A stretch of 64,000 bases of DNA, from the IMG/VR virus record IMGVR_UViG_3300033068_001847, positions 32,001-96,000 of that record, one strand, 5' to 3'. Below, in pieces: positions 29,170 through 33,086 of this stretch. This DNA comes from a virus. Its lineage: Duplodnaviria > Caudoviricetes. Position 1 is the first letter of the stretch; every line of letters starts with the position of its first letter. The translations under genes were made by a program, and so were the position numbers. The notes beneath the pieces were generated by a model. That model was not told the origin of the DNA, searched no databases, and saw only the letters and a list, made by a program, of their open reading frames with translations.

Positions 29170-30356
29170 TTTATAATACTTTTATAAAAATCTGCTCTAT
29201 CAGCAGATACTTTTCTTAAATCATATTTATCTTTTACACTTTCGTAAAGTTTTTCGCCCATCTCTTTTCTAAGTTCTGGATTATCTATTAATTTCTTAGC
29301 ATAATATGACCAATCCTTATTAGATTTATCTTTAACTAAAAATCCATTCTCACCATGTTTAATATCAATCTGATAAGGTATAACATCAGAACAAATTACA
29401 GGTTTTTTGAAAAAACCAGCTTCAATTACTTTTAACTGAGATTTAGCTAAATTGAATTTATTATTTTCTAATGGTATTAAAGATATATCAAAAAGATTAT
29501 AATTCAAGCTATACGTAGATATAGGTTTAGTCCATACTCTTCTATATGGTAATTCTTGTATATCAGGATATTCTTCACGTTTAAAATCCATTAACCAGTT
29601 TAGATAATCCTTATGATTTTCTAAACTTTTGTAATCGGATGTAAAGATTTTTTCATATAAGAACCAAGGTGTTTCAGTAGGTTTTATTGGTCTTTCGTAA
29701 ATATTACCATATCCATCACGATCCTGAACATTTCCTCTGATATCATAACCACATAATACACTTTGAATTCTATTTTTATATTTTTCATTGATAGAATTAA
29801 ACATCGGTCTTAATAACTGTAAATCAAATAAATGTGAACTACCACCTAACCAACCTAATCTAACCTTATCTGATTCTTCTGGTTTAATTTGATATTTTTT
29901 AGAGGTTGGGTCAACCGCATTAGGAAATACTATAACATTATTATGGTGTTTACGAATATCTTTTGCAAAATGCTCCGTAGTTGTCGTGACATAATCTACT
30001 AAACTAAAATATTCAATACTAGTTTCAGCATGTTTAATTTTCTTAGCTAATTCATATTGTGGATGTTTAGGTGAAATCTCCCAATGATCATCAATATCTA
30101 AAATTATGATTTTACCCCTTTCTCTTAGTTTTGGTAAAAATATTTTAGCATGTTCTAAACTTAACATACTCTTACTTCCAAATATTATCTGAAATTTATC
30201 AAAGAATGCTTCATTATTCCAATCTGGTGCTGGTGTAATATCAATATAAAAATCGTTTCCAAACTGCTTTTGAATCTCAATATGTGGTTCTATAAATCTA
30301 AACGATCCAACTCCATAATTATCCTGATTAATTACTAAAATATTTATTTTACTCAT
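29166..30356 (-). CDS. Glycosyltransferase, GT-B fold (GT4-like)
   Basis: GVGSFRFIEP, ILDIDDHW, LGWLGGSSH, DISLIPL..FN.AKSQLKVIEAG..PVICSD and IKHGENGFLV motifs. Confidence 0.88.
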   Translation of the reverse strand: MSKINILVINQDNYGVGSFRFIEPHIEIQKQFGNDFYIDITPAPDWNNEAFFDKFQIIFGSKSMLSLEHAKIFLPKLRERGKIIILDIDDHWEISPKHPQYELAKKIKHAETSIEYFSLVDYVTTTTEHFAKDIRKHHNNVIVFPNAVDPTSKKYQIKPEESDKVRLGWLGGSSHLFDLQLLRPMFNSINEKYKNRIQSVLCGYDIRGNVQDRDGYGNIYERPIKPTETPWFLYEKIFTSDYKSLENHKDYLNWLMDFKREEYPDIQELPYRRVWTKPISTYSLNYNLFDISLIPLENNKFNLAKSQLKVIEAGFFKKPVICSDVIPYQIDIKHGENGFLVKDKSNKDWSYYAKKLIDNPELRKEMGEKLYESVKDKYDLRKVSADRADFYKSIIK

Positions 30357-30405
30357 GTTCTTTTATTTGAATAAAATATAATTGAAGTAATTAAGATTTT
30401 AAATA

Positions 30406-31236
30406 CTATTTTTTCTCTAAATCTTTAATTATCAAATCTCTTATATATTCAGACATTGTTACATGTAATCCTTGTTCAATAGATAATTCTTTTAATCTAT
30501 CAACAACATCATTATATATCTCTTTTTCCACACGTACTGGTGGTATTTTTAACGGTTTAAGGGTTACATTATTAATAAACTCACCTAATATTTCTCTTGT
30601 ATACATTTTATCTCTATCACCATTCATATAACGTTTTTTAACATCTGAATCTTCATGAAATAAAGGTTTAAGTGAAAGTTTATGAAAGTAATTACTTTCA
30701 TTAGTAAACATTTCATAAAACCAACCCTTCTTTTCCATCGGTGTAGATATAACAATAAGTTTACCTCCTGTTGATAACATCGGTAATAAGGAAATCCAGA
30801 AATTATCAAGATTCTTTATAAAAGCAGCCTGATCTATAATTACTATATCTGGTGTATATCCACAAAGTCCTGATTCATTAACAGTTCTAGCTTCGATACT
30901 ACCTGCTAAAAACTCTCTTCTAAATAAATTTTTATAAGTGATATCATCATTACCGATCTTATCAATTTTAGCTAAAAAATGTTTACCGTTTTCTTGTTTA
31001 ACACCAAAATATAAAATAGATTTATCATAGTGGAGTACTGCATAAGCTGCTGCGAAAGTAGAACATCCTGTTTGTCTAGGTGATTTAATTATAGTGAACT
31101 GGTTATTTTCAACAGCATCATAAAATAATAAAGCATTTTCTTCATTTAATTTATATCTTTCTTTTTCAAATTTCTGATTATTAATTGATATAGTTTTCTC
31201 TATATTTTTAATATACATTTGTTTTTTTAAATCCAT
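30406..31236 (-). CDS. Degenerate terminase-large-subunit ATPase domain fused to a C-terminal ribbon-helix-helix-like segment
   Basis: KSPRQTGCST (Walker A with K to C), IVIIDQAAFI (Walker B with E to Q), LIVISTP; no nuclease domain; C-terminal PVRVEKEIY...MSEYIRDLIIKDL. Confidence 0.7.
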   Translation of the reverse strand: MDLKKQMYIKNIEKTISINNQKFEKERYKLNEENALLFYDAVENNQFTIIKSPRQTGCSTFAAAYAVLHYDKSILYFGVKQENGKHFLAKIDKIGNDDITYKNLFRREFLAGSIEARTVNESGLCGYTPDIVIIDQAAFIKNLDNFWISLLPMLSTGGKLIVISTPMEKKGWFYEMFTNESNYFHKLSLKPLFHEDSDVKKRYMNGDRDKMYTREILGEFINNVTLKPLKIPPVRVEKEIYNDVVDRLKELSIEQGLHVTMSEYIRDLIIKDLEKK

Positions 31237-31262
31237 AATTATAAATAGTAAGATTTAAAAAA

Positions 31263-31296
31263 TTTGTAATACCTTTTTGTATTTATGTATTACAAA
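31263..31296. promoter_or_regulatory. 10-bp perfect inverted repeat (TTTGTAATAC-N14-GTATTACAAA), candidate operator
   Basis: Read directly; lies just upstream of the promoter motif of the RHH-containing gene. Confidence 0.45.
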
Positions 31297-31325
31297 AAAC
31301 CCTCAGAGTTTTAATTCCGAGGGTT
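31294..31325 (-). terminator. Rho-independent terminator
   Basis: AACCCTCGGA-attaaaac-TCTGAGGGTT followed by TTTT on the minus strand. Confidence 0.8.
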
Positions 31326-31326
31326 C

Positions 31327-31356
31327 ACCGTAACATTAACTAACGGTCCTAAGTCA
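31327..31356 (-). ncRNA. Candidate small RNA/3'-UTR element complementary to 23S rRNA helix 69
   Basis: Plus strand ACCGTAAC-ATTAAC-TAACGGTCCTAAG versus 23S GCCGTAAC-TA-TAACGGTCCTAAG; directly 5' of the terminator on the transcribed strand. Confidence 0.45.
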
Positions 31357-31377
31357 AATTAATGTTTATTTTAAATA

Positions 31378-31773
31378 TTATTGTTCTTTACCGTATTTTT
31401 GTTCCCACCTATCTTGTACTAATTTCAAAGCTGCTACACCATCTTTCTCATCACAAAGTAACCTGATAGCTGTAATTTTAGCTTTATCTCCTTCAACAAA
31501 TTTAATTGCTGAAGCTCTATGGTGACCATCTAATATATGATCCTTCAAAGAGATGTAAATAGGTTTTGCTGTTTTTATATCGGTTTGTTTAGACATTTTC
31601 TTAATTTTATCTAAATCAACTTCTTTTTGTAATGGTTTAAGTTGTCCTACAGATACAATCACTGGTCTTACGTGTATATCAAATTCAAGTAGCGTATCCT
31701 TTACAAATCTGAAAGGTGCACTTACTTGCGGTAAATAAAACGGCTGTATCGGCTTCTGTTTTTGTTCTTCCAT
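31378..31773 (-). CDS. ParB/sulfiredoxin-like domain protein
   Basis: LKPLQKEV..KI..KPIYIS..HILDGHHR motif. Confidence 0.75.
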   Translation of the reverse strand: MEEQKQKPIQPFYLPQVSAPFRFVKDTLLEFDIHVRPVIVSVGQLKPLQKEVDLDKIKKMSKQTDIKTAKPIYISLKDHILDGHHRASAIKFVEGDKAKITAIRLLCDEKDGVAALKLVQDRWEQKYGKEQ

Positions 31774-31787
31774 TTCCTATAAATATC

Positions 31788-32204
31788 CTAATAAATACAT
31801 ATTACATGTTTAGGTTTAATATCTACTGTAATTACAGTGACTCCATCAGCATCAGTATAATCACAAACACCAAAATCAATATTTAATTCATCAATTATTA
31901 TTTGCATTTTTGAAATTTCAGTACCTGTTAGATCTAAGTCATGTATGAAAAAAGAACACTCATTTTGATTTTCAAAGCTATTAATCAAATTAAAGATTTT
32001 TTGAGTTGTTGAAGGAGCTACGTAGTCATATAATTTAATTTCAATATTAGACCAGACACCATTTTTATAAGTTGGTTTAGTTATACTACTCACCATCCAA
32101 GATTCAATACCAGTAGATACATCAAACTGTACAATAAATCGACAAATCTTTTTTAATTCGCATTCAATAAATAAATGACCAGTAGATGTTCTAAAATTAT
32201 TCAT
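31788..32204 (-). CDS. Tail tube protein (T4 gp19-like) paralog
   Basis: RFIVQF..GIESW..KP..WSNIEIKLYD..PST.Q..LD.TG..I..IDFG.CDY pattern of gp19-like tube proteins. Confidence 0.6.
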   Translation of the reverse strand: MNNFRTSTGHLFIECELKKICRFIVQFDVSTGIESWMVSSITKPTYKNGVWSNIEIKLYDYVAPSTTQKIFNLINSFENQNECSFFIHDLDLTGTEISKMQIIIDELNIDFGVCDYTDADGVTVITVDIKPKHVICIY

Positions 32205-32205
32205 A

Positions 32206-32451
32206 TTATTCTATTCCTGCTAATCCACTAAGGACATGTATATTCCAATTTGAGTCTCTTCCAGATTTACTTAAAAAGTAAGCTACAGATTCTTCATTAT
32301 TTGGTAATGATTCAGTTTTAATAAATTCATTATAACTTGGTAAAGTATAGTGTTTCATATTACTTACAATCTGTTGTAAATTAACTTCAGTTATTAATTC
32401 TTTTCTATTTAATTGAGTGAACTGATTTTCTGTTAATAATATCTTCTTCAT
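32206..32451 (-). CDS. Hypothetical protein (81 aa), possible internal head protein
   Basis: MKKILLTENQF N-terminal motif. Confidence 0.55.
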   Translation of the reverse strand: MKKILLTENQFTQLNRKELITEVNLQQIVSNMKHYTLPSYNEFIKTESLPNNEESVAYFLSKSGRDSNWNIHVLSGLAGIE

Positions 32452-33086
32452 TATCCTTTTAATGCTTTTGTTAATTTAAGGAATGTAACCGCTTCTTCTA
32501 TTCTAGCTTTGATTGTCTCTTTATCTTTCAAATTTTCATTTACTACTCCAACCATACTACCTAAAATATCATATACACAATTTTCAACTAAATCTACAAA
32601 ATCTGAAGTATTTGTTGGTAATTGTCCGCTAGGTTGTGATGAAGGTAAAACTGCTTCAGTTAATTTAGTAGTAGTTCCTTTAATTCCTTGGGAACGTCTT
32701 TTCATTTCTTCCCTAATATCAAATATAGGTGCAACCTGTTTAGTTGCAGATGGTGAGGATTGTTGTTTTTGTCTAAGTTCTTCCTTAATAACATTTGGTT
32801 TTTTTCCACCTATTAATCCTAAAATTGCTTCTGGATCAACACTGTTATACCCTTTGGCATCAGCTACACTACCCACTTCAACCATTTGAAGTGTACCATT
32901 AGATCCAGCTACTTGTTTAAAATTCAATTCAGTTGCTGAAGGTAGATTTGATTCGTTAATTACTTGTGCTGCAACACGAGGATCTACCGCTCCTGTAGTT
33001 TTAGCTCTCATCAGTTCAGTTTCCTTAGTAACTGTTCCTGCCATCATAGCTGCAAGCATTGCTTTCGCACTTTGTTTATTATCCAT
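32451..33086 (-). CDS. Hypothetical protein (211 aa)
   Basis: Long ORF; TATTTACA promoter variant upstream (33115-33122). Confidence 0.6.
   Translation of the reverse strand: MDNKQSAKAMLAAMMAGTVTKETELMRAKTTGAVDPRVAAQVINESNLPSATELNFKQVAGSNGTLQMVEVGSVADAKGYNSVDPEAILGLIGGKKPNVIKEELRQKQQSSPSATKQVAPIFDIREEMKRRSQGIKGTTTKLTEAVLPSSQPSGQLPTNTSDFVDLVENCVYDILGSMVGVVNENLKDKETIKARIEEAVTFLKLTKALKG

Follow-up and report, generated by a model that had tools for sequence, protein, structure and literature searches.

A predicted 3′ UTR element of a large uncultured phage as a reduced member of a class of RNAs complementary to the H69-H70 region of 23S rRNA

The spacer that follows a 131-aa gene on the minus strand of the window (the whole 64,000-nucleotide stretch of DNA analysed here, corresponding to bases 32001-96000 of a 184-kb IMG/VR virus record; GC 29%) contains a two-hairpin element whose conserved core is complementary to helix 69 (H69) of 23S rRNA and to the linker joining H69 to H70. 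We propose that this is a phage 3′ UTR element, reduced in comparison with the other members of a large class of phage RNAs, which would base-pair with host 23S rRNA that is not locked in 70S ribosomes, and we put the probability of this reading at about 0.5. The likeness to H69 had been pointed out in an earlier note made from the letters of the window alone, which gave plus-strand positions 31327-31353 as ACCGTAAC ATTAAC TAACGGTCCTAAG; the reading is accurate, and comparison with E. coli rrlH assigns TAACGGTCCTAAG to 23S positions 1917-1929 and CCGTAAC to positions 1908-1914. Since the neighbouring genes and the terminator are on the minus strand, the transcribed strand is the complement of H69, and the description of a minus strand antisense to H69 and the adjoining linker, followed by a strong terminator (hairpin plus U run), agrees with our findings. 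The same note had cautioned that a 13-mer match could be fortuitous, and with good reason, shuffled windows scoring equally well: exact runs of at least 13 nt shared with E. coli rRNA occur in the window four times for 23S and three times for 16S, and the gapped 22/26 alignment at the site has a score of 14, which is the median top score of 60 Markov-shuffled windows (range 13-17). The 13+7 match by itself is not above chance, and the significance of the element derives from comparative evidence only.

The source is a distantly T4-like, large, uncultured phage, the window coding for a family-B DNA polymerase and a distant gp17-type ATPase fragment, and the completeness of the record is estimated by CheckV at about half. 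All genes around the element are held by the minus strand. The 131-aa ORF (31378-31773, minus strand), of which the element forms the 3′ UTR, has an invariant DGHHR motif and nine homologues of 84-50% identity in a large protein collection, the nearest being P0002 (84%), P0003 (72%), and P0004 (67%). Over the ten homologues of this protein the motifs QPxYLPQ and LDGHHR are invariant; a designation as 'ParB/Srx-like' is not established by Pfam, which returns only faint matches to ParBc_2 and DndB, in single members. The gene after the spacer is a TerL-ATPase-like ORF of 276 aa (30406-31236, minus strand), starting at 31236, whose similarity to gp17-type large terminases is confined to their N-terminal ATPase part and for which no homologue of similar length was found among 5.8 billion proteins. 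Scans of IMG/VR with the 131-aa and the 276-aa protein, each used singly, gave no matches. Outside the window, at about 163020-163160 of the record (G000:C1), a 17-nt unit, AAATAAAAACATAACTA, stands in three tandem copies before an ORF, and a 16-nt identity to E. coli 16S positions 165-180 inside the ORF after these repeats was taken as chance.

A promoter-like motif, (C)TATTTATA, is about 9-fold enriched upstream of genes and stands before about 40 of them, nearly all on the minus strand. Its distance to the ATG is usually 3-18 nt and often just 3-4 nt, which suggests that the late mRNAs are leaderless or near-leaderless. One late-promoter-like TATTTATA is located 4 nt before the ATG of the 131-aa gene (31778-31785, minus strand), and another before the 276-aa gene (31240-31247, minus strand), the latter showing where the next transcription unit begins. 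As each of the two genes thus has its own copy, the element is assigned to a short transcript, probably late and monocistronic, as its 3′ UTR. An RNA element belonging to the 3′ UTR of a phage mRNA, as the earlier note had considered, is accordingly well supported at this site by position, co-orientation, and terminator, as far as the sequence goes.

The spacer between the 131-aa and 276-aa genes is 141 nt long and forms three hairpins on the minus-strand RNA. Hairpin 1 (31333-31365, minus strand) consists, in both MFE and centroid folds, of a 12-pair AU-rich stem with one bulge and the loop UUAGGACC (31345-31352). Module 1, CUUAGGACCGUUA (31341-31353, minus strand), is a perfect complement of 23S 1917-1929, that is, of the 3′ strand of H69 and the linker to H70; it begins 24 nt past the stop codon of the 131-aa gene, and in the fold most of it lies within the lineage-specific stem of hairpin 1. 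The segment GUUACGG (31328-31334, minus strand), identified by sequence comparison, is the complement of 23S 1908-1914 in the 5′ strand of H69 and is able to pair with module 1 as an alternative stem, ACCGU/ACGGU. The earlier note had taken this pairing for a retained H69 stem, a proposal that holds in part: the complementary segments recur in the relative L154, described below, and in one large family of the class, but the MFE folds of the window, L154, and the second relative, L155, differ from it, forming a lineage-specific stem that places UUAGGAYC in the loop. Downstream of hairpin 1 is an intrinsic terminator (31294-31326, minus strand), predicted as an 11-pair hairpin (31297-31326) with an 8-nt loop and then a U6 run, the 5′ side of the loop being GGAAUU (31313-31318, minus strand), a complement of 23S 1937-1942 that is interpreted below as the remnant of module 2. 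A third hairpin, AU-rich and of 10 pairs with a GUAAUAC/GUAUUAC core (31263-31296, minus strand), is followed by a U run and sits between the terminator and the next promoter.

Several more ordinary identities of the spacer were tried and rejected. The spacer does not represent a promoter or terminator motif that the phage repeats, since GACTTAGGA occurs once in the 184-kb record and the two other copies of TTACGGTGAA are coding. A mini-ORF attenuator (AUG UUA CGG UGA and analogues) is not conserved by the other class members. A tRNA-like element, or a mimic of the tRNA-Leu(UAG) anticodon arm with the loop CUUAGGA, was set aside on the grounds that ARAGORN finds no tRNA in the window, that the predicted loops are of 8-9 nt and not 7, and that the flanks form no expected stem.

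The nearest comparative evidence comes from two syntenic loci of JGI metagenomes, L154 and L155, which were reached only via alignment of the 131-aa protein (51% identity), with no rRNA criterion, the family comparison comprising three sequences including that of the window. In both loci the two-hairpin element recurs on the gene strand, at a place downstream of the gene homologous to that of the 131-aa protein; in L155 an extra 59-aa ORF is located between this gene and the element, and the syntenic position in L154 is without the 276-aa ORF, a glycosyltransferase coming there directly after the RNA element. Independent folds of the three sequences agree on the two-hairpin architecture (z-scores of -4.6, -3.7, and -2.3), and in L154 and L155 the terminator follows directly after hairpin 1, beginning with GAA(A)CC..GRAAUU. 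Hairpin 1 has a stem of unrelated sequence in each of the three family members, and the core GACUUAGGAY is invariant in all of them, as is GACUUAGGA in and beside the hairpin 1 loop. The motif singled out in the earlier note is therefore kept in relatives, both in L154 and L155 and in the large class of phage RNAs described below. IMG/VR relatives that share no more than 44% identity with the 131-aa protein are without the element, and a scan with a family-specific three-block pattern gave three chance matches only.

The changes seen within module 1 are of a kind that would preserve pairing. L154 has a C-to-U change opposite G1922, where a G.U pair is possible, and L155 has one extra U (a one-base bulge) and then CGUUAU, which would pair with 23S 1916-1921; that these changes keep the complementarity to 23S is, at n = 3, suggestive only, and L154 retains just 10 pairing positions. 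In a weakly discriminating duplex-energy scan of E. coli rRNA, the H69 site comes first, by small margins, with the window and L155, and only fourth with L154. Immediately 5′ of module 1, the conserved GA is not complementary to 23S G1930/U1931. With regard to the second block, the terminator loop of L155, GGAAUUCGCUAC, is the antisense of 23S 1930-1942 less one A (12 bases), and the identical loop is found in L049 and 13 other terminator-type class members. Since L155 was found by protein and not by rRNA match, its second block is independent of the selection made in the earlier note. At the corresponding place the window has GGAAUU (then AAAAC) and L154 has GAAAUU, in comparison with the full 12 nt of L155, and GUUACGGUGAA is common to the window and L154. 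From these sequences, the window and L154 appear to be sister lineages in which module 2 has been lost and module 1 kept.

Beyond this family, an exact-14-mer scan of IMG/VR gave 114 matches, about 30 of which are non-coding and belong to at least five unrelated families. Nearly all of these non-coding matches continue with the next 23S base, and on the 23S-like strand most show GGTAGCGAATCC at a distance of 40-60 nt; the genes to either side lie on the opposite strand in 12 of 12 representatives. The same 14-mer is also present in frame in a conserved ORF of about 1900 aa (L008, L014, L039, and others), where its conservation reflects coding and has nothing to do with the RNA class. With a two-block pattern (CTTAGGA, 25-55 nt, ATTCGCTAC), IMG/VR gives at least 120 matches, and at least about 100 contigs among the 111 unique matches listed form one class. 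Its module 1, conserved as CUUAGGACC(G), is complementary to 23S 1920-1929, and its module 2, (A)UUCGCUAC(C), complementary to 23S 1930-1937, is placed in a hairpin loop 25-55 nt downstream. Conserved flanking bases extend the complementarity to 23S, to about 1920-1931 for module 1 and 1929-1937 for module 2: C at -1 is shared by 92 of the 111 matches listed and CC at +8/+9 by 101-102, G is present at +10 in 84, and 80 have A or G opposite U1931. A control with the reversed pattern yielded, among the matches listed, unrelated sequences with flank information of about 0 bits, as against up to 1.5 bits for the real pattern. The stems vary between members with pairing kept, as read by eye.

The orientation of the class is equally consistent. 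Among the matches listed, the nearest long ORF is on the antisense-RNA strand upstream of 88 of 98 class members and downstream of 81 of 97; members located within a long ORF number only 6. For one large family a small opposite-strand ORF was considered and rejected, since compensatory stem changes and strand bias point to conservation as RNA rather than as protein. In a large IMG/VR family, UACGGUGA comes after module 1. The upstream genes are unrelated between class members (the RNR large subunit and unknowns), and no partner gene is conserved beside the RNA. In 8 of the 16 class members checked, no more than 14 nt separate the element from the end of the upstream same-strand ORF, the distance in the others being 26-232 nt. 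In 58 of the 111 matches listed, there is in addition a middle hairpin with the loop CGGCUGCUG, complementary to 16S 519-527 (the 530 loop). A conserved 3′ tail, AAAGUGAGCA, to which no rRNA segment is clearly complementary, is a further feature of fuller members (IMG/VR loci L163-L281, e.g., L164:3447-3506). In the terminator-type members (n = 14 among the matches listed), module 2 is the loop of the terminator, as in L155. Judged by its differing stems, its strand bias, and its terminators, the class is a real RNA-level element. It is also apparently undescribed, neither an Rfam 15 family nor a paper having been found: the Rfam search proposed in the earlier note gives no family, with noise only for window positions 30000-33000 at E up to 10, no match at gathering score for ten class-bearing loci, and noise around one full-length member, and phage RNAs with complementarity to 23S or H69 were not met with in a search of the literature.

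The place of the window copy within this class was assessed with a covariance model, R1, of ten terminator-type members from other IMG/VR lineages, the window's family being left out. R1 matches the window over its full length (model positions 1-73) at 31288-31357 on the minus strand, with 35.2 bits and an E value of 2.9e-6, and this is the only match in the window and in the whole 184-kb record; L155 has 37.2 bits (E 1e-6) and L154 23.0 bits (E 0.0016). There is some circularity in the R1 score, the site having been chosen by its module 1 13-mer, and independent support for the window copy is provided by the terminator spacing, by GGAAUU at the start of the loop, by the UGA plus GUUAC context, and above all by the homologous L155. 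Module 1 of the class is present in the window as CUUAGGACCGUUA (31353-31341, minus strand), and the position is that of the class, intergenic and co-oriented with the flanking genes; the terminator loop has only GGAAUU and not the full module 2, and the middle hairpin with CGGCUGCUG (the 16S module) is absent from the window, from L154 and L155, and from the 14 terminator-type members listed. Because module 2 is only GGAAUU in the window and full in L155, the window copy is regarded as a reduced derivative and not as a full member.

Related sequences are also carried by phages in culture. A 51-nt 23S sequence used as probe led, rRNA contamination being set aside, to five cultured Vibrio phages (the PWH3a-P1 group), which have an identical 24-nt antisense of 23S 1907-1930 on the gene strand in an unannotated gap (NC_020863 80887-80910 in Vibrio phage PWH3a-P1; L162:1501-1524); both mismatches are G.U-compatible, and GUCGCUACC lies downstream. 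In Vibrio phage ICP1, an ORF-less gap (NC_015157 80097-81107; L283:10098-11108) contains near its upstream end, on the strand of the flanking genes, ACCUUACGACCGUUAU, which is antisense to 23S 1916-1931 at 15 of 16 positions, and 55 nt later UCGCUACC. The most abundant transcript of ICP1, non-coding and about 800 nt long, comes from this ORF-less gap, the text giving neither its strand nor its 5′ end (PMC7567579). This transcript may resemble the window element in that the module 1 match is on the strand of the flanking genes, within the most highly expressed region (PMC7567579); it is unlike the window element in being much longer and in having one core mismatch, and the two are likened by sequence matches only. 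Megablast of the window locus against cultured phages gave no match, and blastn of two full-length class members against them gave nothing relevant.

In the ribosome, H69 forms bridge B2a, touches tRNA and the release and recycling factors, and adjoins a toxin cleavage site. In the mechanism that we propose for the window element, the loop and 3′ arm of hairpin 1 would offer 13 bases complementary to 23S 1917-1929, the target being nascent 23S rRNA or the free 50S subunit, and the acting form being either the UTR itself or a 3′ fragment of about 70 nt processed from it. The exposed loop would make the first contact, and the pairing would affect, by disturbing or exploiting it, the H69/bridge B2a region. 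This pairing in the cell and its effect, which we infer from the sequence, find support in the location of the element between stop codon and terminator on the gene strand; the conserved GA left unpaired with 23S and the decay of module 2 in the window and L154 speak against them. As positions 1920-1924 are paired inside H69 and the linker is partly buried in the mature 50S subunit, the access of the element to its target is uncertain, and a late transcript fits action on nascent rRNA poorly. For the class as a whole, we advance the tentative view, to which we would give a little less than even odds, that RNAs or UTRs of many unrelated phage lineages pair with the H69-H70 region of 23S rRNA (and, in fuller members, with the 530 loop of 16S rRNA) to control host ribosomes, the window holding a minimal one-module version that is under selection. 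Such control might consist in blocking subunit joining or 50S maturation, or in shielding a toxin-cut segment. Toxins of the MazF-mt6 type cut 23S rRNA between UU and CCU, in the UUCCU site at 1939-1943 (PMC4756823); shielding of this site fits the window copy poorly, because its module 2 is vestigial.

The shrinkage of module 2 to GGAAUU in the window and GAAAUU in L154, where L155 has all 12 nt, is also what would be expected of a decaying relic, derived from the class but no longer acting on rRNA and left with the functions of a 3′ stabilising hairpin and terminator; the missing 16S-type module and the enclosure of most of module 1 in a lineage-specific stem are in keeping with such decay. 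We nevertheless consider a relic unlikely, in that GACUUAGGAY has remained invariant at 51% identity of the flanking protein while the surrounding stems have wholly turned over, and in that the window has a perfect 13-nt complement, longer than the class core. Another role would be that of a cis-acting tether, the UTR pairing with the 23S rRNA of free or just-released 50S subunits and thereby keeping ribosomes on late mRNAs, much as plant-virus 3′ translation enhancers complementary to 18S rRNA would do. The short distance of 14 nt or less to the upstream ORF end in half of the 16 members checked, and the fact that the window element is part of an mRNA and not a stand-alone gene, would suit a tether; it is rendered distinctly unlikely by the unrelatedness of the upstream genes and by the position of the window module, 24 nt past the stop codon, and we know of no such mechanism of ribosome tethering by a 3′ UTR in bacteria.

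A conserved loop on variable stems is typical of protein operators as well, and the conserved GA 5′ of module 1 is unexplained by 23S pairing, so that the hairpin could be a site of protein binding or RNase processing with incidental complementarity to 23S. This is quite improbable in view of the two class blocks mapping to adjacent, overlapping 23S positions (1920-1931 and 1929-1937), a very unlikely accident, and the RNA has no conserved partner gene beside it. That an ordinary hairpin near a terminator resembles rRNA purely by chance might be argued from the expectation of matches of such size in any 64-kb window, yet L154 and L155 conserve the element, L155 has the second module in full, and R1 matches nowhere else in the record, all of which makes chance very improbable. 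Hardly credible, finally, are the H69 mimic or decoy RNA and the DNA decoy for an rDNA-specific homing endonuclease that the earlier note had put forward, inspired by the resemblance of the plus strand to H69, hairpin included, and by a 13-mer that we take to overlap the I-CeuI site. The H69-like strand is not co-oriented with genes and terminators, being the non-transcribed one here and in roughly 85-90% of the class members listed; the identity stops at 13 contiguous bp, and the 23S-like blocks are permuted across the class. A homing site of the LAGLIDADG (I-CeuI) type would need about 19-26 bp, and after the 13 bp the window continues with TCAAAT, where 23S has GTAGCG.

The proposed pairing element is worth comparing with known systems. 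Bacterial small RNAs derived from 3′ UTRs, such as CpxQ and SroC, act by base pairing and have, like the window element, a short conserved pairing segment between the stop codon and their own intrinsic terminator, with the rest varying; the window element likewise sits in an mRNA 3′ UTR, shares the terminator of the mRNA, and has a conserved seed, whereas its complementary target is a universally conserved rRNA and not an mRNA. In the loop-presenting plasmid antisense RNAs CopA/CopT and RNA I/RNA II, as in the window element, the antisense bases are in a hairpin loop, with complementarity running into one arm, and by analogy this arrangement suggests that a kissing contact could be followed by extension; these plasmid RNAs are cis-encoded and fully complementary, whereas the phage element has a putative host rRNA target and a complementarity of 10-14 nt only. 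The box C/D and H/ACA guides of archaea and eukaryotes (e.g., PMC2377435, PMC4644070) are similarly small, with short, sometimes bipartite complementarity to conserved rRNA sites. The phage class, unlike these guides, has no such boxes, and its modules are permuted and overlap on the target. To our knowledge, neither guides of the C/D or H/ACA type in phages and bacteria nor a partner enzyme for the phage class is known. The 3′ cap-independent translation enhancers of plant viruses resemble the element as viral 3′ UTR structures with a conserved host-rRNA complement; they differ in being eukaryotic and in having the small-subunit 18S rRNA as target, a pairing that is itself debated.

The window instance carries the class into a distantly T4-like large phage of 29% GC, presents it as the 3′ UTR of a late mRNA in which the module is shown in the loop by a lineage-specific stem, and documents the loss of module 2 with retention of module 1. 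The cultured carriers, the PWH3a-P1 group and ICP1, make the hypothesis directly testable. The strategies of phages against the translation machinery of which we know are all based on proteins, and the bacterial and phage antisense RNAs known to us have mRNA targets. An RNA class whose only invariant bases complement 23S H69-H70 would thus, if the proposal is true, be a new viral way to touch the ribosome.
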